Positions 2,558-62,365 of a stretch of DNA of 64,000 bases are shown here, in pieces. The translations under genes and the position numbers were made by a program. Each line of letters starts with the position of its first letter. Position 1 is the stretch's first letter. The stretch is taken from contig JAUWNG010000001.1 of assembly GCA_030612765.1 (NCBI GenBank), positions 11,165 to 75,164 of the forward strand, in the 5' to 3' direction. The DNA is from Planctomycetota bacterium. Lineage in GTDB: Bacteria > Planctomycetota > Planctomycetia > Pirellulales > Thermoguttaceae. Below the pieces are notes generated by a model that was not told where the DNA came from, made no database searches, and saw nothing but the letters and a program-made list of their open reading frames with translations.

Positions 2558-4903
<2,346 letters not shown>

Positions 4904-5212: not shown

Positions 5213-5340
5213 CAGCCCGTTGAAAAAGTTGGATTTGGGAGTTTGGGTGCCACTGCTGGCTTGTCCAGCAGTGTTTTCCCGGAAGTTTCCCCCATGCACT
5301 GCTGGGCAAGCCGGCAGTGGCACCCTTTTTCAACGGACTG
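5213..5340. repeat. Family A copy A2 (full, intergenic, centre inverted relative to A3/A7)
   Basis: CAGCCCGTTGAAAAAG...GGTGCCACTGCTGGCTTGTCCAGCAGTG...CACTGCTGGGCAAGCCGGCAGTGGCACCCTTTTTCAACGGACTG. Confidence 0.95.
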
Positions 5341-10887: not shown

Positions 10888-12168
<1,281 letters not shown>

Positions 12169-12177
12169 ACGTCGCAC

Positions 12178-12243
12178 GTTTAGCAGCCGCCGGCACGGCG
12201 GCTTGCGTTGGAACACGGGCCGCCGTGCCGGCGGCCGCTAAAC
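12178..12243. repeat. Family D element (between convergent genes)
   Basis: GTTTAGCAGCCGCCGGCACGGCGGCTTGCGTTGGAACACGGGCCGCCGTGCCGGCGGCCGCTAAAC. Confidence 0.95.
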
Positions 12244-12269
12244 GGACGTCGCATTGTCATTCCAAAACA

Positions 12270-13394
12270 TCACAGCGAATGCAGCGTGGACAACTCCGGC
12301 TCGTTCATCTCCACGGCCGCAATTCCGGTTTGGAGCAACTGTTCCGCTTGCTCCAACAATTCGACGTAAGGAGCGTCGCCGGAGCGTTTGTCCTTTGCAC
12401 TGCTGGACAAGCCGGCAGTGGCGCCCGCCAAGGCGAAGTTCACCGTGCGATCGACGACGTACTGCGGTCTGCCGCGGACCTGATCGTAGATGCGGATGAC
12501 GTATTCTCCGAGGATGCTTATACCCAGGGCATTCAAGGCGCCGAAGAAGCTGCCCATGAGCATGTACGACGTCCAGCCGGGAATGGCCAGGTCGGTAAAC
12601 AGTTTGCAGAACAGAGCCCAGCCGCCGAGGGTCAGAAATACAATCGCGGCCGTCGTTCCGATGCAGTGAAAGATAGTCAGCGGGAACGAGGAGAAGGAGA
12701 AAATCGCGGTTTTCGCCAGTCGGAACAGGCCCCGCAGCGACACCCGGGGATGATTGTCGTAGCGATGGCCTCGCTGGACGACGATTCCTTTTTGGCGGAA
12801 CCCGACCCACGATCGCAAGCCGGGGAAATATCGGTCGCTTTCGCCCATCGCCAAGATGCGTTGCACCACCCGCCGGTCGATCAACCCGAAGATACCCGCC
12901 TCCGCCGGGATCGAGACGCTTGCCACGGCCGACATCAGCCGATGAAAAGCTGCGAAGAGGAATCGTTTCGGCAGCCGTTCCTTGCGTTGTGCCCGGATGG
13001 CGTAGACCACGTCGTATCCTTCGTGCCACGCAGCCATGAATCGCGGGATGGCCGCCGGATCGTCTTGCATATCGGAGTCCATCAGCACCACGACGTCTCC
13101 TCGTGCGTGGGCCAACCCCGCCTGCACGGCCGCCTGATGCCCGAAGTTCCGCGACAGGTGGACCACCCGAATCTTGTCGCTCGATGCGGCCAGTTGATCG
13201 AGTATCCGCGGGCTTTCGTCGCCGGAACCGTCGTTGACGAAAACGATTTCATAGGGCATGGGGCACGGATTCAGCACTTCGGCGATCCGAGCCGTGAGGA
13301 TCGGAATCGCCCGGGCCTCGTTGTAAACCGGAAGCACGACGCTCAACAGCGTCTCCTCGCAGGGAGGGCGAATCGATTCGGTTTGGTTGTTCAT
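12270..13394 (-). CDS. Family 2 glycosyltransferase, GtrB/CsbB/DPM1-like polyprenyl-phosphate glycosyltransferase
   Basis: LSVVLPVYNEA, FVNDGSGD, LMDSDMQDDP, two C-terminal TM helices. ATG at 13394, 11 nt downstream of the upstream gene's stop. The C-terminal about 50 aa begin with half-element A4. Confidence 0.85.
   Translation of the reverse strand: MNNQTESIRPPCEETLLSVVLPVYNEARAIPILTARIAEVLNPCPMPYEIVFVNDGSGDESPRILDQLAASSDKIRVVHLSRNFGHQAAVQAGLAHARGDVVVLMDSDMQDDPAAIPRFMAAWHEGYDVVYAIRAQRKERLPKRFLFAAFHRLMSAVASVSIPAEAGIFGLIDRRVVQRILAMGESDRYFPGLRSWVGFRQKGIVVQRGHRYDNHPRVSLRGLFRLAKTAIFSFSSFPLTIFHCIGTTAAIVFLTLGGWALFCKLFTDLAIPGWTSYMLMGSFFGALNALGISILGEYVIRIYDQVRGRPQYVVDRTVNFALAGATAGLSSSAKDKRSGDAPYVELLEQAEQLLQTGIAAVEMNEPELSTLHSL
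12397..12425. repeat. Family A copy A4 (single hairpin, in-frame near the 3' end of the GT2 gene)
   Basis: GCACTGCTGGACAAGCCGGCAGTGGCGCC. Read on the minus strand as GATAGLSSSA. Confidence 0.9.
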
Positions 13395-15770: not shown

Positions 15771-15899
15771 CAGCCCGTTGAAAAAGTCGGATTTCGGGAG
15801 TTTGGGTGCCACTGCTGGCTTGTCCAGCAGTGTTTTTCCGGGTGTTATCTCCCCGCACTGCTGGACAAGCCAGCAGTAGCACCCTTTTTCAACGGACTG
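15771..15899. repeat. Family A copy A5 (full, intergenic, 32 nt upstream of the YfhO-like start)
   Basis: CAGCCCGTTGAAAAAG...GGTGCCACTGCTGGCTTGTCCAGCAGTG...CACTGCTGGACAAGCCAGCAGTAGCACCCTTTTTCAACGGACTG. Confidence 0.95.
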
Positions 15900-17031: not shown

Positions 17032-17202
17032 ATGAAGTCGCTTGCTAAGAAGATGCAACGTTTCCTCGTTTCCGAGGATGGACCTACCGCCGTGGAGTAC
17101 GCGGTCATGTTGGCCTTGATCGTCATCGTTTGCTTGACGGCGATCAGTTCGGTCGGCACCGCGACCAGCACCACGTTCAGCAACATCGCCGGGTCGCTGT
17201 AA
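17032..17202 (+). CDS. flp: Flp/Fap-family pilin (56 aa; below the ORF-track cutoff)
   Basis: MKSLAKKMQRFLVSEDG/PTAVEYAVMLALIVIVCLTAISSVG... has the G/XXXXEY prepilin motif and a hydrophobic core. GGAGGA SD at 17019-17025, stop at 17200-17202. Confidence 0.85.
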   Translation: MKSLAKKMQRFLVSEDGPTAVEYAVMLALIVIVCLTAISSVGTATSTTFSNIAGSL

Positions 17203-17231
17203 CGATGCCGCCGGACATGGGACATCCGGGG

Positions 17232-17253
17232 AAAAGGGGACGGTCCCCTTTTT
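17232..17253 (+). terminator. Intrinsic terminator-like hairpin after flp
   Basis: AAAAGGGG-ACGGT-CCCCTTTTT. Likely attenuates read-through into cpaA, the usual pilin/machinery stoichiometry arrangement. Confidence 0.6.
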
Positions 17254-17360
17254 CCTGAAATCCGCTAGAGACGGAAAAACCCCTCGGCGCCAAAGGAACT
17301 GGCCCCGAGGGGTCGTTTTTTGACCTATACATTGAGTAGGAGGAGAATGCTTGCCGCCTT

Positions 17361-17427
17361 GTTTAGCCCCGGCGTCCACGCCGGGATACCCGCGGCGATT
17401 CTCCCGGCGTGGACGCCGGGGCTAAAC
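17361..17427. repeat. Family E/D-like element E4 (flp-cpaA gap)
   Basis: GTTTAGCCCCGGCGTCCACGCCGGG...CCCGGCGTGGACGCCGGGGCTAAAC. Confidence 0.9.
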
Positions 17428-17664
17428 GTGTGTTATCTCCCTGAATTGCGAAAGTTCATTGATATACGATTCTTACAATCACGAGAAACGCAACCATGTA
17501 CCCTGTCATTCCCATGGAAATGGTGCAAAGCGCGGTGCAGTTGGTGGTCAATTTCATCACGCTGTTCGGCATCGCCCTCGGCGTCTTGCTGGGTGCGCGC
17601 GCTTAACGTGATTGCAGTTTGCAACCGCCAATACAATACCACCGTCCGATGTAGGAAAGCCGTC

Positions 17665-18231
17665 ATGCCGCAGTTCCACCAGTTACCCGAGTTCCTTGCC
17701 CACAACTGGCCGTTCTGGTTGCTTAGCGTGGTCCTCGTCCTGGCCGCGGTGATCGACGGCTGGAAATTAAAAGTGCCCAACTGGATCACTTTCCCGCTGG
17801 TGATCTGCGGCTGGCTCTATAGCGCCGCCTTTTTCGGCTGGGAAGGACTCGCCTGGAGCCTGTTGGGAACGGTCGTGGGTCTGGCGCTGTTGTTGCCCGC
17901 CTACGCCATCGGTGGAATGGGCGCCGGCGACGTTAAGTTGCTGGCCGGCGTTGGAGCTTGGGTGGGCAGTGCGAGTACACTCTATGCGTTTTGCGTCTCG
18001 GCCATCGTCGGCGGCGTTATCGCCGTCGGAATGGTTCTCTGGCAACGCGATTGGCATCATCACTTCAAACAATTTTGGAACATCGCCAATGAAATAATGG
18101 AAATCCGCGATCCAAACGCCCTATCGGCGATTGCCGCGGAGCGGAAGAGTGCGATGTTGTTGTTGCCTTACGGTATTCCGATTGCAATCGGCTCGATTGC
18201 CTATTTTTACTGGGCGGGGATGCTGCTATGA
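17665..18231 (+). CDS. cpaA: Prepilin peptidase CpaA/TadV (A24 family)
   Basis: AAVIDGWKLKVPN and GGMGAGDVKLLAGVGAWVG (the two catalytic Asp motifs), multi-TM. ATG at 17665. Confidence 0.85.
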   Translation: MPQFHQLPEFLAHNWPFWLLSVVLVLAAVIDGWKLKVPNWITFPLVICGWLYSAAFFGWEGLAWSLLGTVVGLALLLPAYAIGGMGAGDVKLLAGVGAWVGSASTLYAFCVSAIVGGVIAVGMVLWQRDWHHHFKQFWNIANEIMEIRDPNALSAIAAERKSAMLLLPYGIPIAIGSIAYFYWAGMLL

Positions 18232-21588: not shown

Positions 21589-21654
21589 GTTTAGCGGCCG
21601 CCGGCACGGCGGCCCGTATTTTGCCGCAAGCCGCCGTGCCGGCGGCTGCTAAAC
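21589..21654. repeat. Family D element (cpaC-cpaE gap)
   Basis: GTTTAGCGGCCGCCGGCACGGCGGCCCGTATTTTGCCGCAAGCCGCCGTGCCGGCGGCTGCTAAAC. Confidence 0.95.
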
Positions 21655-22929: not shown

Positions 22930-23038
22930 CAATCGGTCCACTCTTGTTCTTCACGGGGCTTGTCGCAATCAGTTCCATCGGCTAAGATTTCTTTGAGCGT
23001 GTTCGGGAATTGACCCGCGAAAAAAGCTATTTAGCCCC

Positions 23039-23122
23039 GGGTGAATACACCCGGGGCACGGTCCGGTACGTCCAACCACCGCTGCCCGCCGTGTATTCAC
23101 GGCGGGCTAAATGGAAGAGACT
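23039..23122. repeat. Family E element E2 (after cpaE, before GH127)
   Basis: ATTTAGCCCCGGGTGAATACACCCGGGGC...GCCCGCCGTGTATTCACGGCGGGCTAAAT. Inverted orientation relative to E1/E3. Confidence 0.95.
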
Positions 23123-25020: not shown

Positions 25021-25093
25021 GCGGCCGGCTGCCGCTACGACCGGAACGACCGGCATATCTTGTTTTCTTCCCCGCGGTTGGATAATTCCCTCT

Positions 25094-25177
25094 ATTTAGC
25101 CCGCCGTGAATACACGGCGGGGACAAGCGGGTTCATGCAGCACATTGTGCCCCGGGTGTATTCACCCAGGGCTAAAT
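25094..25177. repeat. Family E element E3 (after GH127, before cpaF)
   Basis: ATTTAGCCCGCCGTGAATACACGGCGGGG...GCCCCGGGTGTATTCACCCAGGGCTAAAT. Confidence 0.95.
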
Positions 25178-25266
25178 AAGCTCGTTTCAATTTGTAGACG
25201 TGCTCAATCGCCTTGTAGCCGTAAGCTATCTTTTTGGGGACACTTTGCACCAATAGGTATCCAGCA

Positions 25267-28583: not shown

Positions 28584-28649
28584 GTTTAGCAGCCGCCGGC
28601 ACGGCGGCTTGCGGCAGAACACGGGCCGCCGTGCCGGCGGCCGCTAAAC
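28584..28649. repeat. Family D element (after tadC)
   Basis: GTTTAGCAGCCGCCGGCACGGCGGCTTGCGGCAGAACACGGGCCGCCGTGCCGGCGGCCGCTAAAC. Confidence 0.95.
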
Positions 28650-30217: not shown

Positions 30218-30649
30218 ATGACCAAACAAGAAATACTCGACGCCATTCCACACCGCGACCCCTTCCTGATGGTCGACGAGGTGATCGAACGCTCCGACCG
30301 GCGGATCGTCGGCGTCAAGACGTTCGACGGCCGGGAGTGGTTCTTCGCGGGACATTATCCCGGCTACCCGCTGGTGCCGGGCGTGCTGCTTTGCGAGGCG
30401 GCGATGCAGTGCGGGGCAATCCTGCTGGCGAGGCATTTTAGTATTTCGGCCGACGAAAACAAGGTGCCCGTGGCTACACGAATCAACAACGTCCGCTTCA
30501 AGCGTATGGTCCGGCCAGGCGAAAAAATCGTCATGGAAGTGGAACTGACCGAGCGGCTGGCTGACGCCTTTTTTCTCAACGCCAAAGTGTCGGTGGACGG
30601 CCAGGCGGCGGTGCGGTTCGAGTTCGCCTGCACGGCGGCGGGGAAATAG
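30218..30649 (+). CDS. fabZ: 3-hydroxyacyl-ACP dehydratase FabZ-like
   Basis: IPHRDPFLMVDEV...FFAGHYPGYPLVPGVLLCEAAMQ hot-dog active-site motif. Confidence 0.85.
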   Translation: MTKQEILDAIPHRDPFLMVDEVIERSDRRIVGVKTFDGREWFFAGHYPGYPLVPGVLLCEAAMQCGAILLARHFSISADENKVPVATRINNVRFKRMVRPGEKIVMEVELTERLADAFFLNAKVSVDGQAAVRFEFACTAAGK

Positions 30650-30801
30650 TGGATAGTGGGTAGTGGATAGTGGATAGTGGCCAGAGGGTGGGTAGCCACG
30701 ATAGCTCGGCTGTCGCGGACACCCGAGTGATACCGTTATCTACCCACTATCCACTACCCACTACCCACTACCCACTACCCACTACCCACTACCCACTACC
30801 C
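30647..30801. repeat. Family G heptamer arrays in inverted orientation, filling the fabZ-fabI gap
   Basis: Left arm TAGTGGATAGTGGGTAGTGGATAGTGGATAGTGG (30647-80). Right arm (CTACCCA/CTATCCA)x9 (30740-30801). Confidence 0.95.
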
Positions 30802-32866: not shown

Positions 32867-32941
32867 GGGGACTGGTCCATTTTTCGGCGAAAAAACGCGT
32901 TTTGCCGACGAACCGTTGGCCGAAAACATGGACCTGTCCCC
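32867..32941. repeat. Family B-related palindrome (intergenic)
   Basis: GGGGACTGGTCCATTTTTCGGCG...CGAAAACATGGACCTGTCCCC. Confidence 0.8.
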
Positions 32942-32955
32942 TTCCCGCGGCGCCA

Positions 32956-33036
32956 GGGGGACAGTCCCATTTTCGCGGCGGTCAAGTCAATTTGCCTAGC
33001 AACGTCGCTCGCGCCGCGTAAATTGGGACAGTCCCC
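32956..33036. repeat. Family B-related palindrome (intergenic)
   Basis: GGGGGACAGTCCCATTTTCGCGGCG...CGCCGCGTAAATTGGGACAGTCCCC. Confidence 0.8.
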
Positions 33037-33058
33037 TGTGAACGGTTACCGCCGGCGA

Positions 33059-33498: not shown

Positions 33499-34905
33499 TA
33501 GCCCGTGTTTGGCCAGCTTGTCGCGGAAGGTCGAGGGTTTCATACCCAGCGCGGCGGCGGCGGCCGTCTTGTTGCCGCCCGAGTTGCGCAGCGCGTCTTG
33601 AAGAAGTTGCTTCTCGGCGTGGTCGATCACCGCCTGAAAACCGCCGGCGGGCAACCTATCATTCTGCTCGGGGCCGCCGATCTCGCCGGCCAACACGTCG
33701 GGCGTGATGTTTCCGCCGCCGATCAGCAGTGCCCTTTCGAGCGTGTGGTACAGCTCGCGGACGTTGCCCGGCCAATCGTGTCGCGAGAGCAGAACGACCG
33801 ACTCCGGCTCGATCCGGCAGGGGCGCCCGGGTGGCACTGCCGGCTTGTCCGGCAGTGGATGGCCGGTGGCACTGCTGGACAAGCCAGCAGTGGCACTCCG
33901 AGACTGGCCGGCAATGCGTTTCAGCAGGTGCTCGGTCAGCAGCGGCAGGTCGTCCAATCGGTCCCTGAGCGGCGGGATGTTGATCCGCAGCACGTCGAGC
34001 CGGTAGTAGAGGTCCTTGCGGAACGTGCCCTCGCCGATTTTTCTCAGTAGATTCCGCTTGGTCGAGGCGATGATCCGAACGTCGGCCTTGATGGGCGCGC
34101 CGCCGCCGACGCGCTCGAAGACCTTTTCCTCGATCGCCCGCAACAGCTTCGGTTGCTGGGCGAATGGGATGTCGTCGACGTCGTCGAGATAGAGCGTTCC
34201 GCCTTCGGCCAGATCGAAGCGGCCCTTTCGCTGCTGGTCGGCGCCGGTGAAGGAGCCTTTCTCGTGTCCGTAGAGTTCGCTTTCGATGAGCTGCGGTGGG
34301 AACAGTGTGCAGCCGACTTTGACGAAGGGGAACCCGTGTCGGTGCGAGTTGCGGTGGATGATCGTCGCCAGGAGATCCTTGCCCACGCCCGTCTCGCCGT
34401 AGAGGAGCACGTTGGCGTCGGTTTTGGCGGCGATTCCGACCATCTTTTTGACCCGTTCCATCACGGCCGAGCGGCCGACGATGGTCGTTTCCACGTCTTC
34501 GGCGGAAAACGGTTGTCTAGCCGGCGTCGATTCGGCCGCGGCTTGCCGCCCGCGCTCGATCCGGGCCAACAGCGGCAGCACGTCCTCGTTGCGGAAGGGC
34601 TTGGTGAGGAAGTCTATCGCGCCGAGCTTGACCGCCTCGACGGCCACGGGAATGCTGCCGTAGGCGGTCATCATGATGACTTCCGTGTCGGCCAGCGGAC
34701 CTTGCTTGATCCGTTTGAGCAGTTCGATGCCGTCGAGCCGGGGCATTTTCAGGTCGGTCACCACCACGTCGAATCGTCCGGCGTCGAGTTTTTCGACCGC
34801 TTCCCGGCCGTCGGCGGCGGCTACCACCTCGTGTCCCTGCGCGGCGAGATCGTCGGCCAGGGTGACCCGTTTGATCTTTTCGTCGTCAACGACAAGGATT
34901 CGCAT
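33493..34905 (-). CDS. Sigma-54-dependent response regulator (NtrC family)
   Basis: Receiver (ILVVDDE...DLKMPRLDG), AAA+ (GETGVGKDLLA, ESELYGHEKGSFTGA, WPGNVREL), C-terminal Fis-type HTH. Carries in-frame element A6. Confidence 0.9.
   Translation of the reverse strand: MRILVVDDEKIKRVTLADDLAAQGHEVVAAADGREAVEKLDAGRFDVVVTDLKMPRLDGIELLKRIKQGPLADTEVIMMTAYGSIPVAVEAVKLGAIDFLTKPFRNEDVLPLLARIERGRQAAAESTPARQPFSAEDVETTIVGRSAVMERVKKMVGIAAKTDANVLLYGETGVGKDLLATIIHRNSHRHGFPFVKVGCTLFPPQLIESELYGHEKGSFTGADQQRKGRFDLAEGGTLYLDDVDDIPFAQQPKLLRAIEEKVFERVGGGAPIKADVRIIASTKRNLLRKIGEGTFRKDLYYRLDVLRINIPPLRDRLDDLPLLTEHLLKRIAGQSRSATAGLSSSATGHPLPDKPAVPPGRPCRIEPESVVLLSRHDWPGNVRELYHTLERALLIGGGNITPDVLAGEIGGPEQNDRLPAGGFQAVIDHAEKQLLQDALRNSGGNKTAAAAALGMKPSTFRDKLAKHGLP
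33830..33896. repeat. Family A copy A6 (two core hairpins, no outer arms; in-frame in the NtrC-family gene)
   Basis: GGTGGCACTGCCGGCTTGTCCGGCAGTGG...GGTGGCACTGCTGGACAAGCCAGCAGTGGCAC. Minus-strand translation SATAGLSSSATGHPLPDKPAVPP. Confidence 0.9.
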
Positions 34906-38349: not shown

Positions 38350-38560
38350 CTAACCATAGAGGTATTTCGACACAAAACGACTGCCCATAATGCGCTACGC
38401 ACACTCGAACCGGTCGGTTCGCTCCGTCTCTACCCGCCCCATACTACTGTCAGAGAATTGTAACTTCCAAAATCGGTCTAATCAAGGCAACATAAGATTC
38501 CATTGGGGTTAGGGGGAGCGAGGGTTGCCGGAATGTTGCCGATTTGCGACACTAGGCAAC

Positions 38561-40191
<1,631 letters not shown>

Positions 40192-40195
<4 letters not shown>

Positions 40196-40282
40196 GGTGG
40201 GACAAGCGCAGCGCGGTCCCACCAGTACTCGAAAAATTGAAAGAAAAATTGGTGGGACTGCGCTATGCTTGTCCCACCCTAC
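40192..40282. repeat. REP doublet (REPIN) C1
   Basis: GTAGGGTGGGACAAGCGCAGCGCGGTCCCACC ... GGTGGGACTGCGCTATGCTTGTCCCACCCTAC. Confidence 0.95.
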
Positions 40283-41630: not shown

Positions 41631-41662
41631 GTAGGGTGGGACAAGCGCAGCGCGGTCCCACC
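41631..41662 (+). repeat. REP singlet C2
   Basis: GTAGGGTGGGACAAGCGCAGCGCGGTCCCACC, 3 nt after the xylA stop. Confidence 0.95.
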
Positions 41663-41690
41663 ATCGACTTCTATGCAGCAGGAGACTTCC

Positions 41691-42524
41691 ATGCCCATCA
41701 TGTTCAACATGATTCTGCGAGAGGCTGGCTTGCCTTTGTCCGATATCCGTCTTCTGCGTCACAAGGACAATCGAGCCGCAAGGGGACGTACTCCATACGA
41801 ATTGTGGCGCGACAATCCTGCGCAATTTGACTGGTATCAATCAACCCAAAGAGTGAAGAACAGAACGAGGCTTACGGCATCGTTTTGGGCTTCGTTTGTG
41901 GGCACACCAAGCGACGAGACATTATTTGTAGGCGTCTACGGCATCAAGAATCGAAAACTTTTGGATGTAGACACGCCCATGCCTCACAGGGATGGTGTGG
42001 ACAAGGCGGGTACCTGCGATGTGTACGATCTGCGACTGGAGCCGGCTCTGTGCGAACTTATTGGCAGATTACTCATTGATTGGGGGCCGGGCAAGCGATC
42101 TTGGATTCAACGCGCTGACCGGAAAGAAAAGCGGATTATGGAGCTGCGCAGGGAATTCAAGGAGCCCGACTTCCCCGGCTTCTTGAGTTTCATGCAACCG
42201 CTCTCAAAGCTCAACACACTTCCGAAAGGTTGGGTGGATGCGCTAAGATCTTCAAAAGGTGTTTACATCCTGACGTGTCCCAAGACCCAGGAGCAGTATG
42301 TTGGCTCCGCGACTGGGGAGGATGGATTCTGGAGTCGTTGGCAGGACTATGTTGAATCGGGCCACGGTGGGAACGTGGCTCTCAAGAGTCGGGAGCAGAG
42401 CGACTACCAGGTGTCGATCCTTGAAGTTGCGGGAAGTGCTTTGACAACAGACGACATCATCCAGATGGAAGTGCGGTGGAAGTCGAAACTGCAAAGCAGG
42501 GAGATGGGATTGAACAGGAACTGA
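41691..42524 (+). CDS. GIY-YIG nuclease-domain protein with an uncharacterised N-terminal domain
   Basis: C-terminal KGVYILTCPKTQEQYVGSATGEDGFWSRWQDY...GGNVALK...YQVSILEV...EVRWKSKL (GIY-YIG pattern). GGAGA SD before ATG 41691. The 542-aa ORF-track entry is a read-through artefact that overlaps xylA out of frame. Confidence 0.7.
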   Translation: MPIMFNMILREAGLPLSDIRLLRHKDNRAARGRTPYELWRDNPAQFDWYQSTQRVKNRTRLTASFWASFVGTPSDETLFVGVYGIKNRKLLDVDTPMPHRDGVDKAGTCDVYDLRLEPALCELIGRLLIDWGPGKRSWIQRADRKEKRIMELRREFKEPDFPGFLSFMQPLSKLNTLPKGWVDALRSSKGVYILTCPKTQEQYVGSATGEDGFWSRWQDYVESGHGGNVALKSREQSDYQVSILEVAGSALTTDDIIQMEVRWKSKLQSREMGLNRN

Positions 42525-42597
42525 CTCCATTTACTCTCCCGGCCGGGGAACAGAACTTACTGTGGTTTAAGGCAATCCGAAGCTGAAAAGTAATCAT

Positions 42598-42629
42598 GGT
42601 GGGACCGCGCTTCGCTTGTCCCACCCTAC
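42598..42629 (-). repeat. REP singlet C3 (inverted relative to C2)
   Basis: GGTGGGACCGCGCTTCGCTTGTCCCACCCTAC, 17 nt upstream of the RAYT ATG. Confidence 0.95.
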
Positions 42630-42645
42630 TTATGCCGAGGTGGTC

Positions 42646-43200
42646 ATGTCCGACTATCGGCGTTGGTATGTACCGGGAGGAACATTTTTCTTCACCGCCG
42701 TTACCTACGGTCGTCGGCCGATTCTTTGTGATGCGACGGCAAGGAAGTTTCTACGGAAAGCAATCGAGGCAGTGCGCCAACAGCGACCAATCGAACTTGT
42801 CGCGATAGTGCTTCTGCCCGACCACGTTCATACGATTTGGACCCTGCCGCCAGGCGATGTTGCCTATCCTGTGCGATGGAAGCGTATAAAAGAGGAATTC
42901 ACTCTCGCTTATCTTGCAAGTGGCGGATCAGAAGGGCCGCTGACCCGTTCTCGAATCCGGCAAGGTGAACGCGGCGTGTGGCAACGTAGATATTGGGAAC
43001 ATACTGTACGCGACGAAGACGACCTGGACCGCTGCGTCGATTACATTCATTGGAATCCAAAGAAACACGGCCTTGTCGAAAACATCCAGGATTGGCCCTG
43101 GTCATCATTCAGTCGATATGTTTCATTAGGCCAATATACTCTCGATTGGGGCGCAACTGATCCGACGCCCGGCTACAATGCCCCTGAATGGGGCGAATAA
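42646..43200 (+). CDS. REP-associated tyrosine transposase (RAYT; IS200/IS605 Y1-type HUH)
   Basis: HUH motif LLPDHVHTIW, catalytic Tyr region CVDYIHWNPKKHGLV, WPWSSF tail. Flanked by REPs. Confidence 0.85.
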   Translation: MSDYRRWYVPGGTFFFTAVTYGRRPILCDATARKFLRKAIEAVRQQRPIELVAIVLLPDHVHTIWTLPPGDVAYPVRWKRIKEEFTLAYLASGGSEGPLTRSRIRQGERGVWQRRYWEHTVRDEDDLDRCVDYIHWNPKKHGLVENIQDWPWSSFSRYVSLGQYTLDWGATDPTPGYNAPEWGE

Positions 43201-43203
43201 ATC

Positions 43204-43300
43204 GTAGGGTGGGACAAGCGCAGCGCAGTCCCACCACGCGATAGAGTGGCTTTTGTGTTCCGGTTATTGGTGGGACCGCGCTGCGCTTGTCCCACCCTAC
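43204..43300. repeat. REP doublet (REPIN) C4
   Basis: GTAGGGTGGGACAAGCGCAGCGCAGTCCCACC ... GGTGGGACCGCGCTGCGCTTGTCCCACCCTAC. It starts 4 nt after the RAYT stop. Confidence 0.95.
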
Positions 43301-51823: not shown

Positions 51824-51858
51824 AGTAGTGGATAGTGGGTAGTGGATAGTGGGTAGTG
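51824..51858 (+). repeat. Family G heptamer array
   Basis: AGTAGTGGATAGTGGGTAGTGGATAGTGGGTAGTG. Confidence 0.9.
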
Positions 51859-51909
51859 AAGAAGGCGGAAGGAAGAAGGGTGGAGGGCGGAGGGCGAGGG
51901 CTGGCCGCT

Positions 51910-54174
51910 TCAGCGGCCAGTTGGCGATTTGGCCGGGCGTTTTTTTTGCTTTGGTCGTCCGTGGGTTTTCTTGGTCGTCGGATAGTTCGGATTGTCGGCC
52001 TTCCCGGTCAATTCGTAGAGGAAGCGGCTGCAATTCGTGGGCCGAGCCTTGCCCCATTTCCGACGGTTCAGCGCCAAGGTCAGCGTCAACCGGCGTTGGG
52101 CGCGGGTCACGCCCACGTAGCACAAACGCCGCTCCTCGTCGATCGCCGCGCCGTCGTTTGCCGGAAAAGGGGACAGGTCCAATTTGCCGGAACGGCCCTT
52201 CGGGTGCTGCGCACAAATTGGACCTGTCCCCTTTTCCGACTTCAGGGACCGATGGTGCGGCAACGTGCCCTCTTCCATGCCGACCATGTACACTTCCCAA
52301 AACTCCAATCCCTTGGCCGCGTGGAGGGTCATCAGTGCCACGGCGTTCCGCTGCAACTTCGATTCCTTGTCCCGGTCGGCTTCGTTGCCGGTCAGCGCCA
52401 CCTCCTGCAAAAAAGCGGCCAGGGTCGAAAAAGGGGACAGGTCCAATTTGCCGGAACGGCCCTTCGGGTGCTGCGCATAAATTGGACCTGTCCCCTTTTT
52501 CGACCCCGCACAAATTGGACCTGTCCCCTTTTCCGACCCGGCCACGGCGTTGACCAACTCTTCGACCGACGCCCAGCGGGCATCCCGATCGTTCACGTTC
52601 GGGTACAATCGGACTAGTTCTTCTTTGTAGGCGATTTCCGTCAGCAACGTCTTGACTACTTTGGACAGCTTCGGGAAAGGGGTCGTTAAAGGGGACAGGT
52701 CCAATTTGTGCGCAGCACCCTGCGGGCCGTTCCGGCAAATTGGACCTGTCCCCTTTTCCGGGTCCTTTTCCGGGTCCATCCACCGTCGAAAGCGTTCGAT
52801 CAGCGAGTGGAAGCGTTCGACCGCCAGTTTTGCGGCGTCCGAGAGTCCGTTCTGTTTGCCCGCTCGGGGTAGAATCTTCCACAGCGGCTTGCCGCTCTGG
52901 ATCGCCTCTTCCATCAGCCGCTTTACGGTGGTCTGTCCGATTCCGCGTGGCGGTGTGTTGATGATCCGCAACAGCGACGACTCGTCGGCCGGATTGGCCA
53001 GCACTTTCAGATAGGCCAACACGTCGCGGACTTCCTTGCGGTCGTAGAAGGACATCCCGCCCATGAGGATATAAGGTATATTTGCCCGGCGAAGCTCCAT
53101 CTCGAAGGCCCTCGGCTGCTCGTTGGTCCGGCAGAGGATGGCGAAGTCCTTGGGTTTGCGTTTCTTTTCGGCAATTCGATGCGCGATCTCGCCGACGACG
53201 GTTCGAGCCTCGGTTATCTCGTCCTCCAGTTGCAGGATTCGAGGCGGTTCGCCGCGGCAAGTCGCCCGCAGAACCTTCGTGTGCCGGAGTTTATTGAAGG
53301 CGATCAGGCGGTTCGCCCAGGCGAGAATTTCGCGCGTCGAGCGGTAGTTGACCTCGAGCCGGACGACCTTTGCCTCGGGCCAGTCGGTTTTGAATCGCAG
53401 GATGTGGGCCACTTCGGCGCCCCGCCAGCCGTAGATCGACTGGTCGTCGTCGCCGACGACGCACAGATTTCGGTGCCCGGCCGCCAAGGCCTTGACGATC
53501 CGATACTGACTGGCGTTGGTGTCCTGATACTCGTCCACCAGCAGGTGGTCGAACCGTCCGGCCTCCGCGCGGCGAGCGTCGGTGTGCTTCGCAAAAAGCT
53601 CCTCGGTGCAAAGCAGCAGGTCGTCGAAGTCCAACGCACCGGCGGCCTTCAGCGCGTTTTGATAGCGGCGGTATGCGACCGAAGCCAGATGCTCCTTGTC
53701 GGTTTGCGCCGATGCGGCCGCCTGCTCGGGCCGGACCGAGGCCGATTTCCACCGACCGATGAAATAGAGCAAGTCGCCGGGTCGTAACATTCCTTGAGCC
53801 ACCTTGATCTCGCGCAAAGCGGCTCGGGCCACGCCCTCCTGGTCGCCCCGATCATAGATGGCGAAGTTTTCCGGATATCCCAACCGTCGGATATTGCGGC
53901 GGAGAATGCGGACGCAGAGCGAGTGGAAGGTCGAGATTTCCGGCCGCTGCTTGAGTCTCTTTCCCAACAAGGCGGCTGCCCGCTCTTGCATTTCGGCGGC
54001 GGCTTTGTTGGTGAAGGTGACGGCCAGTATCCGAGCGGGCGGGACGCGGCTGCGGATCAGTTCGGCGATGCGGTATGTCACCACGCGGGTCTTTCCCGTG
54101 CCCGCGCCGGCCAAAACCAACATTGGCCCGGAGAGCGTATGGACGGCGTCATATTGGGCGGGGTTCAAGTCCAT
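51910..54174 (-). CDS. uvrD: UvrD/PcrA/Rep-family DNA helicase carrying in-frame repeat insertions
   Basis: LAGAGTGKT, LLVDEYQDTN, VGDDDQSIYGWRGA, LMTLHAAKGLEF, YVGVTRA. 754 aa, intact ORF through elements B1-B3. Confidence 0.9.
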   Translation of the reverse strand: MDLNPAQYDAVHTLSGPMLVLAGAGTGKTRVVTYRIAELIRSRVPPARILAVTFTNKAAAEMQERAAALLGKRLKQRPEISTFHSLCVRILRRNIRRLGYPENFAIYDRGDQEGVARAALREIKVAQGMLRPGDLLYFIGRWKSASVRPEQAAASAQTDKEHLASVAYRRYQNALKAAGALDFDDLLLCTEELFAKHTDARRAEAGRFDHLLVDEYQDTNASQYRIVKALAAGHRNLCVVGDDDQSIYGWRGAEVAHILRFKTDWPEAKVVRLEVNYRSTREILAWANRLIAFNKLRHTKVLRATCRGEPPRILQLEDEITEARTVVGEIAHRIAEKKRKPKDFAILCRTNEQPRAFEMELRRANIPYILMGGMSFYDRKEVRDVLAYLKVLANPADESSLLRIINTPPRGIGQTTVKRLMEEAIQSGKPLWKILPRAGKQNGLSDAAKLAVERFHSLIERFRRWMDPEKDPEKGTGPICRNGPQGAAHKLDLSPLTTPFPKLSKVVKTLLTEIAYKEELVRLYPNVNDRDARWASVEELVNAVAGSEKGTGPICAGSKKGTGPIYAQHPKGRSGKLDLSPFSTLAAFLQEVALTGNEADRDKESKLQRNAVALMTLHAAKGLEFWEVYMVGMEEGTLPHHRSLKSEKGTGPICAQHPKGRSGKLDLSPFPANDGAAIDEERRLCYVGVTRAQRRLTLTLALNRRKWGKARPTNCSRFLYELTGKADNPNYPTTKKTHGRPKQKKRPAKSPTGR
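52165..52235. repeat. Family B palindrome copy B1 (in-frame in the helicase gene)
   Basis: AAAAGGGGACAGGTCCAATTTGCCGGAACGGCCCTTCGGGTGCTGCGCACAAATTGGACCTGTCCCCTTTT. Read as EKGTGPICAQHPKGRSGKLDLSPF. Confidence 0.95.
52428..52532. repeat. Family B copy B2 plus an extra right half-copy (in-frame in the helicase gene)
   Basis: Full copy 52428-52500, then GCACAAATTGGACCTGTCCCCTTTT (52508-52532). Read as EKGTGPICAGSKKGTGPIYAQHPKGRSGKLDLSPF. Confidence 0.95.
52688..52757. repeat. Family B copy B3 (opposite orientation; in-frame in the helicase gene)
   Basis: Same arms, with the central spacer reverse-complemented relative to B1/B2. Read as EKGTGPICRNGPQGAAHKLDLSPL. Followed by a small tandem duplication (DPEKDPEK). 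Confidence 0.95.
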
Positions 54175-54240: not shown

Positions 54241-54383
54241 AATGAAATCCTCTCACCGATGGTAAGCCGAGGGCTTCGTTGCGGGAAGGGGTCGCGCGCT
54301 TGCAATTCATGGGTGCCCGATACATACTAAATGTTTACTGGCAAGAGCGTTATTGTCGGTGCAATCTTCCCGTGCCACCCCCC

Positions 54384-56495
54384 ATGAAGCGTGGTGCCGC
54401 AATGAAATTCTCAAAACTCCCAACTCAACTCCTCGTTGTGACGGTCGTTCTGGCGCTGGGGTTGTGTTCCGGTCAAACCCTCGGTCGGCAGACCGTCCTG
54501 GCCCAAGACAAGGCCGTCATCGAAGCGCCGAAGGACCTTGCCGGATACAAGGCCATGGAAACGCGGGTCAAGGCGGTGGTGGCAAAGGTCTTGCCGGCGG
54601 TGGTGGGTATCCGGGTCGGCGGCGCCGCGGGCAGCGGTGTCATCGTCAGCGAGGACGGAATAGTGATGACTGCCGGACACGTGGTCCGTAAACCCGGACA
54701 AAAGGTCACTTTCATCTTTCACGACGGCAAAACCGCCAAGGGAAAAACACTCGGCATGTCAATGCCGACCGACGTCGGGCTAATGAAGATCACCGACCCC
54801 GGCAAGTGGCCCTTCGCGCCGCAAGGAGATTCCGACACCGTGAAACCGGGCGCGTGGTGCGTGGCCTTCGGCCATCCGCTGGGGTATCGGCCCGGACGGC
54901 CGCCGGTGGTCCGCGTCGGCCGCGTGTTGGAAATTACCGAACGCGTCATCCGCACCGACTGCCCGCTGGTCGGCGGCGACTCGGGCGGGCCGTTGTTCGA
55001 TCTGGACGGAAAAATTATCGGCATCAACAGCCGCATTGCCGGGCCGGCCGACGTGAATCTTCACGCCCCGATCAATCTCTTCCACAAGTGCTGGGACCGG
55101 TTGCTGAAAGGCGACGCCTGGAAGACCGACCTGCCGAGCCGCGATGACGCGGACGTGAAAAAACCCTTCCGCCAGATAGTTAAGGCCGCAAACAAGTGCG
55201 TGGTGCGGATCAAGTGCGACGGCAAGGACGCGGCCCTGGGAACGATCGTCGGCCCCGATGGCTGGGTGTTGACCAAGGCCAGCGAGTTGAAGGGCAAGGT
55301 CGTCTGCCGGCTCAGCGACGGCCGCGATCTGGAGGCCCGCATCGTCGGCACCCACCCGCGGTTCGATCTGGCGATGTTGAAGATCGACGCGCTCGATCTG
55401 CCGATAATCCCTTGGAAGACCGGCAAGATGGAAGTGGGGCAATGGCTGATCTCGGCGGGGATGGGCGACGATCCGTTGGCCGTGGGGGTGATTAGCGTTC
55501 CCCGCCGCGCGATCCCGCCCGTCGGTGGTCTGATGGGCATCCAACTCGGCGACAAGGACGGAGCGGCGCTGATCGTTAAGGTCCTTCCCAAAAGCCCGGC
55601 GAAAAAAGCGGGCCTAAAACCCAACGACGTCATCACGCACGTAAACGAAAAAGCCGCCGCCAACAGCGCCGAAGTAGGCAATCTCGTGCGGCGGCACCGG
55701 CCCGGTATAACCGTCGAACTGACCGTCAAACGCGACGGAAAGATACTGAAGATTCCCGTCAAACTGGGGAAACTTTTCACCCCTGCGCTGAAGAAACAGC
55801 AGATAATGAACAGAATGGGCGTGGGCGTCAGCAAGCGGTCCGACAATTTTCCCGCCGTCTTGCAACACGACACCGTGATAAAGCCCGTCGATTGCGGCGG
55901 CCCCGTGATCGACCTTAGCGGAAGAGTGATCGGAGTGAACATCGCGCACGCCGGCCGGACGGAGACGTACTGTCTACCGACCGACGTGTTGATCGCGCCG
56001 ATGTATGAAATGATGTCCGGCCGTCTCTCGCCAGCTTTGCTAAAAGCAGCAAAAAAGGCCGCCGTCGAGAAGAAGGCCGCTGAGGAAAAAGCTGCTGCCG
56101 AAAAGAAGGCGGCCGAGGAAAAGGCCGCTGCCGAAAAGAAGGCGGCCGAGGAAAAGGCCGCTGCCGAAAAGAAGGCGGCCGAGGAAAAGACCGCTGCCGA
56201 GAAGAAGGCCGCTGAGGAAAAGAACGCCGCCGAGGAAAAAGCTGCCGCCGAGGAAAAGGCCGCTGCCGAGAAGAAGGCCGCTGCCGAAAAGAAGGCCGCC
56301 CAAGAGAAGGCTGCTGAGGAAAAGAAGGCCGCCGAGGAAAAAGCCGCCGCCGAGAAGAAGGCCGCCGAGGAGAAGAAGGCCGAGGATAAACCTGCCCCAA
56401 AACAGAAACCGGAAGAAAAGGAATCCAACGGCAATAGTAGTCCGTCTCCAAGCCGTCAGGAAGGCATACTTGTGCAATCCATTTCGGCGAAATGA
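54384..56495 (+). CDS. HtrA/DegP-like trypsin-fold serine protease with PDZ domains and a Lys/Ala/Glu-rich tail
   Basis: TAGHVV, DVGLMKI, GGDSGGPLF catalytic triad. PDZ-like segments. Signal peptide after M at 54384 or 54402. Confidence 0.85.
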   Translation: MKRGAAMKFSKLPTQLLVVTVVLALGLCSGQTLGRQTVLAQDKAVIEAPKDLAGYKAMETRVKAVVAKVLPAVVGIRVGGAAGSGVIVSEDGIVMTAGHVVRKPGQKVTFIFHDGKTAKGKTLGMSMPTDVGLMKITDPGKWPFAPQGDSDTVKPGAWCVAFGHPLGYRPGRPPVVRVGRVLEITERVIRTDCPLVGGDSGGPLFDLDGKIIGINSRIAGPADVNLHAPINLFHKCWDRLLKGDAWKTDLPSRDDADVKKPFRQIVKAANKCVVRIKCDGKDAALGTIVGPDGWVLTKASELKGKVVCRLSDGRDLEARIVGTHPRFDLAMLKIDALDLPIIPWKTGKMEVGQWLISAGMGDDPLAVGVISVPRRAIPPVGGLMGIQLGDKDGAALIVKVLPKSPAKKAGLKPNDVITHVNEKAAANSAEVGNLVRRHRPGITVELTVKRDGKILKIPVKLGKLFTPALKKQQIMNRMGVGVSKRSDNFPAVLQHDTVIKPVDCGGPVIDLSGRVIGVNIAHAGRTETYCLPTDVLIAPMYEMMSGRLSPALLKAAKKAAVEKKAAEEKAAAEKKAAEEKAAAEKKAAEEKAAAEKKAAEEKTAAEKKAAEEKNAAEEKAAAEEKAAAEKKAAAEKKAAQEKAAEEKKAAEEKAAAEKKAAEEKKAEDKPAPKQKPEEKESNGNSSPSPSRQEGILVQSISAK
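56040..56400 (+). repeat. 33-nt (11-codon) tandem repeat array encoding AEKKAAEEKAA
   Basis: GCCGAAAAGAAGGCGGCCGAGGAAAAGGCCGCT units repeated about 9-10 times with drift. Confidence 0.9.
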
Positions 56496-57978: not shown

Positions 57979-59289
57979 ATGTTAAATAGACGTACGTTGC
58001 TTTTGATGTGTTGTCTAATCGGTTCCGTCGGTTGTACCGGTGCGGCCGACACCAACTGCCTGTTGAAAAAGGGTGCCACTGCTGGCTCGTCCAGCAGTGC
58101 GGGGGAAAACACCCGGGAAAACACTGCTGGACAAGCCAGCAGTGGCACCCGAAATTCCCAAAACCGACTTTTTCAACGGACTGCTAAGGCAAACGAGAAG
58201 GCCCGCGTTGCCGCCATCCGCGCCGGAAAAGTGGTTCAAGGTCTGCATCCCAAGTTCGCGGCCGCGGTCCGTCGGATCGACGAATTGGGAGGGAAAATCG
58301 CGTTCGACGCCGCCGGCAACTTCATCGGAGTCGATCTGGCCGGCAATCGGGGCTCCGCCGACGACGCCGACATTCCACACTTGCTCGCCTTGCCGCATCT
58401 GAAGAAACTCAAGCTCTCGGGCGGGGGAATAACCGACGAGGGCATCCGGCTCTTGAGCTCGATCGCCGGCCTGACGGAACTTTCTCTGCTGGACGTTCAA
58501 CTCGACGACGCCAGCCTGGAAAGACTCGCCGGGCTGCCAAACCTCGTTTCGCTGAGCATCCGGCGAAGCCCGCGGTTGACCGACAAGGGGCTGGAACACC
58601 TCAAGCGGCTGCCTAAGCTCACGAAGCTGGGCCTGCTCGAAGTCGGCGTCACGGATCGCGGACTGGAGCAGATTGCCGGAATTACGCGGTTGAAGTTGCT
58701 CGATCTCCGCGGCTGCGCTCAGGTGGGCAACCCCGGTCTGAAACGCCTCGCGCCGCTGAAGAACCTCAAAACCTTGCGGCTGGGCGGCTATCAGATAAAT
58801 GACGACAGCTTGGCGATCATCAAGAAACTTGCGTCTTTGACCAGCCTGACCATTGACGAAGCCGCCGTCACCGACGCGGGCCTGGCACACCTTGCCGGCC
58901 TGCCGCTTGAGGAGGTCGGCCTTTCCCGATGCTATAGCGTCACCGACGAGGGATTCCGGCGACTCGGCGGCCTCGTTGCTCTCCGACGGCTTACGCTGCG
59001 GGGCATCCCGCTGACGGGCGCCGGGCTTGCGCACCTGCCCGACACCAGTACGCTCGTCGTGTTGCGGCTCAACGAGACGGGCGTGGACGACGACGCCCTG
59101 CAACACCTTCGCCGATTGAAGAAGCTCACCCGTCTCGAACTACGGCAGACGCTCGTCACCGACGCCGCGGTCGATCACCTCAAGAGGCTCGGCTCCCTGC
59201 GGTTCCTCGATGTTCGTGAAACCAGGATTTCCGCAGCCGGGGCAAAGCGACTCGCCGAGGCCCTGCCAAAGTGCAAGGTCATGCACTAA
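57979..59289 (+). CDS. Leucine-rich-repeat (RNI-like) lipoprotein
   Basis: Signal/lipobox LLLMCCLIGSVGC. About 14 LRRs (LxxLxLxxxxITDxGLxxL). Element A8 is inserted right after the lipobox. Confidence 0.8.
   Translation: MLNRRTLLLMCCLIGSVGCTGAADTNCLLKKGATAGSSSSAGENTRENTAGQASSGTRNSQNRLFQRTAKANEKARVAAIRAGKVVQGLHPKFAAAVRRIDELGGKIAFDAAGNFIGVDLAGNRGSADDADIPHLLALPHLKKLKLSGGGITDEGIRLLSSIAGLTELSLLDVQLDDASLERLAGLPNLVSLSIRRSPRLTDKGLEHLKRLPKLTKLGLLEVGVTDRGLEQIAGITRLKLLDLRGCAQVGNPGLKRLAPLKNLKTLRLGGYQINDDSLAIIKKLASLTSLTIDEAAVTDAGLAHLAGLPLEEVGLSRCYSVTDEGFRRLGGLVALRRLTLRGIPLTGAGLAHLPDTSTLVVLRLNETGVDDDALQHLRRLKKLTRLELRQTLVTDAAVDHLKRLGSLRFLDVRETRISAAGAKRLAEALPKCKVMH
58056..58183. repeat. Family A copy A8 (full, in-frame in the LRR lipoprotein gene)
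   Basis: Translated as CLLKKGATAGSSSSAGENTRENTAGQASSGTRNSQNRLFQRTAK. The centre matches A1. Confidence 0.95.
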
Positions 59290-61986: not shown

Positions 61987-62197
61987 CGCAGCCTCCTAAC
62001 AGGGGGGTATATCCACGGAGCTTCCACGGGTGAAGTGTGGATAAAAAAGACATCGGAATTTGCCGGAGCGGAACTTTCGTCAAAGCCAGAAAAATCGGCA
62101 GAGTCCCTCTCAGTTACCGTAGACTACCGGTGGCCACGCAGCTTTTCTAATTTTTCGCATCGGGAAGCAGCTTAGTTGCTGTTGCGGAAAAGCCCGT

Positions 62198-62278
62198 GTA
62201 GGGTGGGTCAAGCGAAGCGTAGCCCCCCCAACAGCGAAAAAATCATGGTGGGGCTGCGCTTCGCTTGACCCACCCTAC
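62198..62278. repeat. REP doublet C5 (variant sequence)
   Basis: GTAGGGTGGGTCAAGCGAAGCGTAGCCCCCCC ... GGTGGGGCTGCGCTTCGCTTGACCCACCCTAC. Confidence 0.9.
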
Positions 62279-62365
62279 ATAGTCGAATGTGGCCGGATTT
62301 GCCCACGGCGGAAGCCTGACGTAGGTTTCTTATGGCAGTTGCTTTTCGGCCCGATAGGAATACCC

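Follow-up and report, generated by a model that had tools for sequence, protein, structure and literature searches.

In-frame copies of a dispersed palindromic repeat in a UvrD/PcrA-type helicase gene of Planctomycetota

How can a helicase gene carry several copies of one palindromic repeat inside its reading frame and remain unbroken, and are the places where the copies sit hotspots for insertion or sites where insertion is tolerated? This question is raised by a 64,000-nucleotide stretch of DNA from a Planctomycetota bacterium (GenBank assembly GCA_030612765.1, contig JAUWNG010000001.1), which we call the window and in which positions are counted from the first letter. An earlier note, made from the letters of the window alone, had described three and a half in-frame copies of a palindromic element within a 754-aa open reading frame (ORF) for a UvrD/PcrA-type helicase. 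A search for the 21-nt arm of this element, AAAGGGGACAGGTCCAATTTG, gave the same picture: the arm occurs seven times in the window, at 52166, 52214(-), 52430, 52478(-), 52511(-), 52688, and 52736(-), and all seven occurrences are within the helicase ORF, where 100 shuffles give an expectation of 0. The seven arms make up three full palindromes and one additional arm. We think it likely that the helicase copies belong to a small, non-autonomous, coding-tolerant selfish palindrome that is dispersed in Pirellulales-type Planctomycetota and survives in permissive loops. The gene and the copies that it carries are as follows.

51910-54174, minus strand: host gene, an uninterrupted UvrD/PcrA-type SF1A helicase of 754 aa, from the ORF and its domain matches
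52162-52238: site 3 copy, with perfect 25-nt arms (52162-52186 and 52214-52238) and a 27-nt spacer; protein residues ~646-673, KSEKGTGPICAQHPKGRSGKLDLSPFP, in the loop between motifs V and VI
52422-52506: site 2 copy, with perfect 28-nt arms (52422-52449 and 52479-52506); residues ~558-582
52507-52539: extra half copy, a 33-nt (11-codon) tandem duplication of a single arm at a spacing of 33, which yields EKGTGPICAGSKKGTGPIY
52672-52772: site 1 copy, core 52688-52756, with the spacer reverse-complemented and the copy therefore in the opposite orientation; residues ~471-502, EKGTGPICRNGPQGAAHKLDLSPL; outer imperfect 12-nt duplications lengthen the palindrome to 37-nt arms

As direct repeats, the full copies are 76-96% identical to one another, and the copy at 52684-52762 is the reverse complement of the other two with its centre included (94% and 91% identity as inverted repeats), in agreement with the inverted centre that had been reported for it. 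Every copy is translated as EKGTGPIC…KLDLSPF, and the insert peptides are of the KGTGPICAQHPK type. The copies fold at about -35 kcal/mol as DNA and at -60 to -73 kcal/mol as RNA, with z-scores of about -7 to -9.4 against shuffled controls; the values for the site 3 hairpin are -34.8 kcal/mol for DNA and -60.3 kcal/mol for RNA. Because each copy amounts to an mRNA hairpin of about -60 kcal/mol, a cost or side-effect on expression is likely. A scan for consensus intrinsic terminators left the helicase copies unflagged (the stem is followed by only 4 U and lies within a translated ORF), and Rfam returned only sub-threshold matches to generic hairpins (miRNA) for the copies and no family at threshold.

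The 754-aa product matches the Pfam families UvrD-helicase (PF00580, 3.7e-86) and UvrD_C (PF13361, 2.9e-64), and structures of PcrA, Rep, and UvrD match it at 1e-105 to 1e-137. The match to PcrA (1pjr, E = 5.6e-137) is made up of three aligned blocks that are broken only by the inserts. Scores against the NCBIfam pcrA, rep, and uvrD models are 493-622 bits, under the equivalog cut-offs of 911-1144 bits, and the subtype is left unassigned. The helicase motifs AGAGTGKT, DEYQDTN, LHAAKGLEF, and YVGVTRA, all of which the earlier note had listed as retained, are found in the translation. The inserts add ~90 aa over the usual orthologue length of 655-670 aa.

In the alignment to 1pjr, query residues 648-675, which are insert 3, fall between PcrA residues 594 and 595, and this agrees with the earlier placement of one insert between motifs V and VI. 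The 116 aa of query residues 464-579 align with 53 aa of PcrA, residues 473-525; the surplus equals inserts 1 and 2 together, and removal of these two inserts gives back PcrA's 53-residue spacing. The alignment puts all three inserts between conserved blocks, and no helicase residues are replaced by them. Sites 1 and 2 lie in what we take to be domain 2B and site 3 in what we take to be domain 2A of the UvrD/PcrA fold. In an AlphaFold model of the protein (mean pLDDT 69.6), inserts 1 and 2 come out as coil (pLDDT below 50) flanked by helices that are modelled with confidence, and residues 634-725, around insert 3, are modelled poorly.

A load of 3.5 inserts in one gene is extreme, and together with the poor modelling of residues 634-725 it could be taken to mean that invasion by the repeat has inactivated this helicase and that a second, intact paralogue is the active one. 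We regard such decay as very unlikely. The ORF is unbroken and its motifs are complete, and the ratio of nonsynonymous to synonymous substitution rates (dN/dS) is 0.15-0.22 for all pairs of four close orthologues, whether occupied or not; for the window gene against its relatives it is 0.17-0.22, in the same range as the 0.15 of the least-occupied pair, P0002 and P0003. In addition, the insert-bearing allele is common to the window and the orthologue P0001 at a dS of 0.157 and has thus been retained over time. Because dN/dS stays at 0.15-0.22 with or without the inserts, the substitution pattern indicates a helicase gene under purifying selection and not a pseudogene, and we predict that the insert-bearing allele is functional.

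The nearest relatives in the databases are proteins from Pirellulales/Planctomycetota metagenome-assembled genomes (MAGs), usually of 655-670 aa. Outside the inserts, the closest orthologues share 94-96% identity with the window protein, yet they differ in which sites are occupied.

P0001: sites 1-3 all filled; site 1 with a 63-nt tandem duplication and in the opposite orientation
P0002: a single insert, at site 2
P0003: none intact; part of a right arm survives in decayed form at site 2

P0001 is 90% identical to the window protein over the full length and ~94-95% identical over aligned positions. At the DNA level, site 3 of the window is an insertion of 81 nt (27 codons) that P0002 and P0003 lack, and 9 bases in its flanks differ. 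The alignment with orthologues, which had been proposed as a check, therefore finds the inserts to be polymorphic and dispensable in close relatives. Their absence, singly or together, from orthologues of 94-96% identity, the purifying selection on the gene, and the presence of the family in 41 MAGs (see below) all uphold the proposal that one mobile element was inserted several times without breaking the gene.

These orthologues also bear on whether a dispersed repeat has been mis-assembled here, by collapse or expansion, in a gene that really has fewer inserts or none. The contigs of two close relatives, P0050 and P0026, which are short-read assemblies, do terminate inside the repeat. However, the independent assembly of P0001 is filled at the same three sites with substitutions of its own and another tandem arrangement, and P0002 has one insert; moreover, all copies keep the frame across 754 codons, and MAG contigs of megabase scale contain many copies. 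An assembly artefact is thus extremely unlikely.

Further pairs of orthologues show what occupied and empty sites look like. The clearest case is that of P0008 and P0019 (96.5% identical), whose difference amounts to exactly 84 nt and includes no duplication. The "empty" P0019 allele (L121, ~1895-1925) has GGAAAAGGGG, the terminal motif of the element, directly before AGCCC, at the place where P0008 (L120) has a 93-nt palindrome. In P0019, GGAAAAGGGG codes for EKG, a tripeptide that is absent at this place from the more distant empty orthologues P0012, P0015, and P0028. The GGAAAAGGGG stub in P0019 looks like the footprint of an in-frame deletion, or it could instead be a target that resembles the end of the element. 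In P0013 and P0014, site 3 differs by 84 nt and the empty site has no terminal motif, and site 1 differs by 60 nt with the flanks rewritten. The net insertion lengths of 60, 81, 84, and 84 nt are all multiples of three but are not constant. A fixed 81-nt unit (27+27+27), which the recurring hexamers of the subfamilies and the 81-nt insertion at site 3 had suggested, was rejected on the other clean pairs, at 84, 84, and 60 nt. A required target motif GAAAAGGGG at the empty site, suggested by P0019, is contradicted by the empty site 3 of P0014, and solo copies of this terminal motif are not enriched within the window. We found no target-site duplication in three occupied/empty pairs, and a scan of the flanks of the copies at all boundary offsets with k = 2-6 gave only a self-complementary CG artefact. 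Copies are in visible decay in P0003, P0005, P0007, and P0063.

Do the same sites recur beyond these close relatives? Among 121 helicase orthologues, several lineages have inserts of the family in these three loops, and two other positions are each filled in a single case. The same loop can be filled by the 69-nt type of the element, by a 93-nt type that has a 45-nt spacer, or by a diverged subfamily (GTVCRNGPKGASHKRFLTPF), in both orientations and with slightly differing junction residues. At site 1, more distant orthologues have peptides like …GTAGRASSGT…, which resemble the intragenic …TAGQASSGT… of another palindrome family of the window (family A, described below). The presence of different elements in the same loops fits a filter in which certain sites are permissive. 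Between the hotspot and the tolerated sites that the earlier note had offered as alternatives, the sequence comparisons favour tolerated loops.

To define the distribution of the element outside the helicase, we compared the exact 18-mer of the arm with species-representative genomes, which gave at least 116 stretches, taken as loci of 8 kb or less. Nearly all of these are from Planctomycetota MAGs labelled Pirellulales, Pirellulaceae, Thermoguttaceae, or "Planctomycetaceae"; among the listed matches, one is labelled Phycisphaerae and one Verrucomicrobiota. At least 41 assemblies are represented, with the window included. The census loci, three orthologue loci, and the window together contain at least 114 full copies, and in 103 of them the arms and spacer are exactly 21+27+21 nt, the 45-nt spacer being rare. 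Conservation per position is above 0.94 nearly throughout, including in the spacer, which the search did not constrain, and it reaches background within ~5 nt outside the arms. At one locus, five copies lie within 2.2 kb, and MAG contigs of megabase scale (1.6-3.3 Mb) hold many copies. Collections of plasmids and phages gave no match to the element. A contig classed as viral (L125, IMG/VR UViG_3300031707_006576), planctomycete-like and of 66% GC, has one complete intergenic copy of the 93-nt type at 3430-3522; viral contigs otherwise gave one solitary arm, which is at chance level.

The palindrome runs 4-6 nt past the constant arm, and its terminal bases vary from copy to copy while remaining complementary. 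The termini GCCGGA…TCCGGC, GGAGAA…TTCTCC, GGCGGA…TCCGCC, GCGAAA…TTTCGC, and (G)AGGGAA…TTCCC(AC) recur at unrelated loci in different MAGs, and because of this recurrence we consider the terminal variants to mark subfamilies. A few copies have unique, perfectly complementary extensions of 8-12 nt, well above chance (L098 6448, L078 6409, L064 1471, L079 6976, and L093 3774); these could be rare subfamilies or palindromes that were lengthened by template switching.

We next consider how the element reads when it lies within a gene. For 98 copies, coding was called from stop-to-stop ORFs and a frame test based on the GC content of third minus second codon positions (GC3 minus GC2), which was validated on the helicase. 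Each of the six frames is without stop codons in 89-97 of the 98 copies, while among shuffled palindromes matched in composition just 3.6% have all six frames open. By location, 56 copies lie inside ORFs that have a coding signature, 21 are no more than 30 codons from an ORF end, and the other 21 are in non-coding DNA; ~57-78% of copies lie within genes. Because 82% of the window is coding by rough gene calls, this intragenic share means that placement is near random with respect to genes, in marked contrast to classical extragenic repeats. The 56 internal copies are read in the EKGTGPI phase in 39 cases, in the KGDRSNL phase in 10, and in the KRGQVQF phase in 7 (chi-square p = 5e-8), and both orientations are used. 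The EKGTGPI phase gives the most hydrophilic and Gly/Pro-rich of the three peptides.

When 1.84 billion cluster representatives were searched exhaustively with a HMMER profile, 410 proteins proved to have the element peptide, and among the best 150 of these 410 hits, about one in ten has two or three copies. The hosts include Metallophos/Exo_endo_phos, NPCBM, DUF7948/SBBP, and beta-propeller proteins, a BlaR1-type M56 peptidase, Ser/Thr kinases in which the insert is in the kinase domain, AcrB, DPP-IV, cytochrome c, and a DnaK-related protein. Specificity for repair genes was considered and rejected, as other multi-copy hosts are cytochrome c, AcrB, DPP-IV, and DnaK-related proteins. What had seemed striking, namely multiple insertion into a conserved repair gene, is real as multiple insertion but is peculiar neither to this gene nor to repair genes, given 410 hosts of many families.

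The favoured phase and the 410 protein clusters raise the alternative that the ~25-aa peptide is itself functional, for example as a regulatory or interaction loop, and has been spread by selection on the protein, with its palindromy being incidental. Against this, the same DNA is found in non-coding regions, in all three phases, and in both orientations, and it is at the DNA level that conservation is seen, the spacer and the complementary termini included. No Pfam or NCBIfam model matches the insert peptides, the host proteins are unrelated in function, close orthologues do without the inserts, and the inserts are modelled as disordered. A protein module of this kind is therefore highly improbable.

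The commonest subfamily, (G)AGGGAA…TTCCC(AC), is placed differently from the rest: 16 of its 22 copies are non-coding or a few codons from ORF starts (examples of loci with these ends are L006, L013, L014, L020, L029, L047, L062, L070, and L080), whereas 50 of the 76 copies with other ends are internal to genes. This location, mostly just upstream of ORFs or in non-coding DNA, is what might be seen if the hairpins were domesticated, that is, kept to tune expression through transcription pausing, RNase III cleavage, or slowed translation, or kept as marks for DNA-binding proteins. The RNA folding energies, the perfect stems of 25-28 bp, and the conservation across at least 40 species would also fit. 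However, presence and absence are polymorphic in near-identical orthologues, the hosts are unrelated, and some copies are visibly decaying; nor are the hairpins flagged as terminators or placed in an Rfam family at threshold. We consider domestication to be quite unlikely.

How, then, might the copies have arrived and been kept? On the selfish-palindrome reading that we prefer, the element would owe its mobility to a trans-acting activity working on it as a single-strand hairpin, or to template switching at that hairpin, and selection would subsequently favour copies that are in frame, free of stops, and in loops. Copies in permissive surface loops would be near neutral and kept, and copies elsewhere would be purged; the same three helicase loops would be refilled across species because only permissive loops retain copies. 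Copies could later decay, be duplicated locally, as in the 33-nt and 63-nt tandems, or lose segments in frame, and exchange, whether between the two inverted arms or with a different copy, may flip or replace the centre.

Several observations weigh against this reading or leave parts of it incomplete. First, copies are clustered above chance: with 100-400 copies per genome, 0.001-0.07 genes per genome with at least three copies would be expected, and multi-copy genes are common. Local duplication accounts for part of the clustering, as in the 33-nt and 63-nt tandems, and the rest may come from local re-insertion or from exchange between copies, but a simple selection filter does not fully explain the clustering together with the recurrence at the same sites. 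Second, copies are near-identical across genomes whose helicases are only ~70-80% identical, for which neutral persistence alone is insufficient. Third, the junctions are fuzzy, with net lengths that vary (60/81/84/84 nt), flanking 3-9 nt that are often rewritten, and GGAAAAGGGG kept in one "empty" allele. Fourth, the coding calls rest on a GC3-based test and stop-to-stop ORFs, and at least one "internal" copy probably sits in the gap that separates two genes sharing a frame. Finally, no mobilising enzyme was found: clustering of masked ORFs around the copies in the 116 loci of 8 kb or less gave no recurrent transposase, and the candidate neighbours that came out were only large paralogous families. 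The only Y1 transposase of the window is of the RAYT type (42616-43200, 194 aa, Y1_Tnp 1.4e-6, HUH motif LPDHVHTIW), and it is flanked by GTAG-tagged repeats of a different family, family B, and not by the helicase element.

Some of these points would be covered if the element were instead a palindrome adapted to coding sequence and actively maintained throughout the order, one that spreads with no transposase dedicated to it and re-seeds itself through hairpin-driven template switching or gene conversion at GAAAAGGGG stubs. If true, this would account for the lack of target-site duplications, for the complementary termini including the 8-12-nt extensions, for the flipped or swapped centres at one site, and for the near-identical copies across deeply diverged genomes. 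In a sharper version, the repeated occupation of UvrD/PcrA would benefit the element itself; in other bacteria UvrD/PcrA counteracts palindrome- and repeat-mediated rearrangements. We hold this alternative to be unlikely and prefer a non-autonomous selfish palindrome that survives in permissive loops.

The window is unusually rich in distinct palindromic repeat families, some of which are related to the helicase element.

32867-32941 and 32957-33037: two diverged relatives (hairpins) with arms GGGGACTGGTCCAT… and GGGGGACAGTCCCAT…, between predicted genes
17228-17255: short hairpin GGGGAAAAGGGGAC-G-GTCCCCTTTTTCC, 26 nt 3′ of the end of a flp pilin ORF
3964-4043, 5245-5325, 11364-11443, 12398-12426, 15804-15884, 33829-33898, 39049-39128, and 58071-58150: copies of family A
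40192-40282, 41631-41663, and 62197-62279: copies of family B other than those beside the RAYT gene, all intergenic or at the 3′ end of a gene

The two diverged hairpins share the core GGGAC(A/T)GGTCCAT with the element, and their intergenic position and relatedness are as previously described. The hairpin near flp had also been linked to the arms, and it does share the 10-mer AAAAGGGGAC with the ends of the element (8 matches against 0.1 expected); it may be a deletion derivative of the element or a precursor. Upstream of this AAAAGGGGAC hairpin is a 56-aa Flp-type pilin ORF (17032-17202, motif G-PTAVEYAVMLALI), and downstream is a prepilin peptidase gene (Peptidase_A24, 17320-18231); the region 17032-18231 looks like part of a tad/flp pilus locus.

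Family A (GGGTGCCACTGCTGGCTTGTCCAGCAGTG…) is ~96 nt long with its conserved flanks TTGAAAAA…AAACTCCC and has ~7.5 copies in the window. Five of these are in predicted genes, for a PKD/TPR protein, an unannotated ORF, an NtrC-type sigma-54 activator, a ThiD2-ThiE fusion, and an LRR protein. In four of these genes the copy is translated in one shared phase (…KGATAGLxSSA…TAGQASSGT…), and the shorter copy in the sigma-54 activator, 33829-33898, reads …SATAGLSSSATG…. Family B (GTAGGGTGGGACAAGCGCAGCG…), which is GTAG-tagged, lies on both sides of the RAYT gene (region 42597-43300) in the classic RAYT/REPIN layout, and its repeat at 40192-40224 overlaps the final 4 nt of the gene at 38525-40195. Adjoining the RAYT gene, between two family B repeats, an ORF at ~41700-42524 has a weakly matching GIY-YIG nuclease domain, which at E = 1.7e-4 narrowly misses the Pfam cut-off. 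Further hairpin families that start (G/A)TTTAGC… (e.g., GTTTAGCAGCCGCCGGCACGGCGGC) are found at 2529-2553, 12170-12251, 21589-21654, and 28584-28649, and also at 17361-17427, 23029-23112, and 25093-25178; the mapped copies of the GTTTAGCAGCC type are all intergenic and mostly just 3′ of genes.

Around the helicase gene itself, an array of a 7-nt unit (TAGTGGA/TAGTGGG) lies directly 3′ of the stop codon, at 51826-51859. A second TAGTGGA/TAGTGGG array is at 30647-30798 and contains a 39-nt inverted pair at 30647-30777. On its other side the helicase gene is adjoined by a gene for an HtrA-like protease (Trypsin_2 + PDZ, 54279-56495), with a long tail of low complexity, made of KKAAEEKAAAE repeats, at its end.

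Is such an element already known? RPE-1 to RPE-8 (Ogata et al. 2000, as summarized in PMC3733652 and PMC3184786) are palindromic repeats that lie between functional genes and, in frame, inside them. The helicase element is like them in being a dispersed hairpin repeat that is both intergenic and genic in frame, with a tolerated peptide, no known transposase or target-site duplication, and hosts in repair and replication; it differs in length (~77-81 nt vs. ~105-146 nt) and in being a near-perfect palindrome. It also belongs to a different phylum, its hosts are free-living (contigs of 1.6-3.3 Mb) where those of RPEs are reduced and intracellular, its core stays the same in many species and families, and the intragenic share is apparently higher. 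None of the three phase peptides has a match in NCBIfam that would point to homology with RPEs, whose domain models NCBIfam presumably includes. To our knowledge, the mechanism by which RPEs move is still unknown after 25 years.

Repair genes have been decorated by other repeats as well. GTAG/CGTC REPs, and REP dimers too, can lie wholly within ORFs, many of them genes of DNA synthesis and repair that include UvrD/Rep helicase, uvrA, uvrB, and recB (Di Nocera et al. 2013, PMC3733652), with double REP hits in some genes and some insertions near the same site in related species (PMC3733652). Unlike these, the helicase element has no GTAG/CGTC tag and ends in NNNNRAAAAGGGGAC…, and its intragenic copies are the majority, while they are the exception in the survey of PMC3733652. 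REPINs, which are extragenic and accompany or flank a RAYT gene (Bertels and Rainey 2011, PMC3116915), resemble it in having two inverted arms and a short spacer (21-28 nt and 27 nt in the helicase element) as one hairpin, in being non-autonomous and without target-site duplication, in the occurrence of single arms ("singlets"), and in long persistence within lineages. In contrast to REPINs, the helicase element is mostly intragenic (56 of 98 copies, plus 21 at ORF edges), and no Y1 transposase recurs near its copies in the 116 loci.

[quoted passage not shown] The helicase element is like MITEs in being short, non-autonomous, and hairpin-forming with inverted repeats, and some MITEs are fused to ORFs; an autonomous IS with its terminal repeats was found in none of the 116 loci. 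Mitochondrial genes of Nematomorpha are reported to have long perfect inverted repeats in coding sequence with both arms translated (PMC6649704), and the palindromes described there are organellar and gene-specific and form no single dispersed family. A full-text search of the literature found no account of elements like this one in Planctomycetes. We conclude that the principle is precedented in RPEs and intragenic REPs, but that the family itself is distinct from both; what is noteworthy is its mostly intragenic spread, the core kept across many species, and the repeated filling of the same helicase loops.

There is also a practical consequence. Because these repeats break short-read assemblies, inflate protein lengths, and make unrelated planctomycete proteins look similar, they should be masked by annotators and in homology searches.

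In-frame palindromes are one of the few known routes by which selfish DNA adds peptides to essential proteins. The family described here is a larger natural data set for this route than the RPEs, with hundreds of host proteins, dozens of genomes, polymorphic sites, several subfamilies, and a second similar family, and it makes the mode of insertion, the filter by permissive loops, and the fate of the inserted peptides testable.

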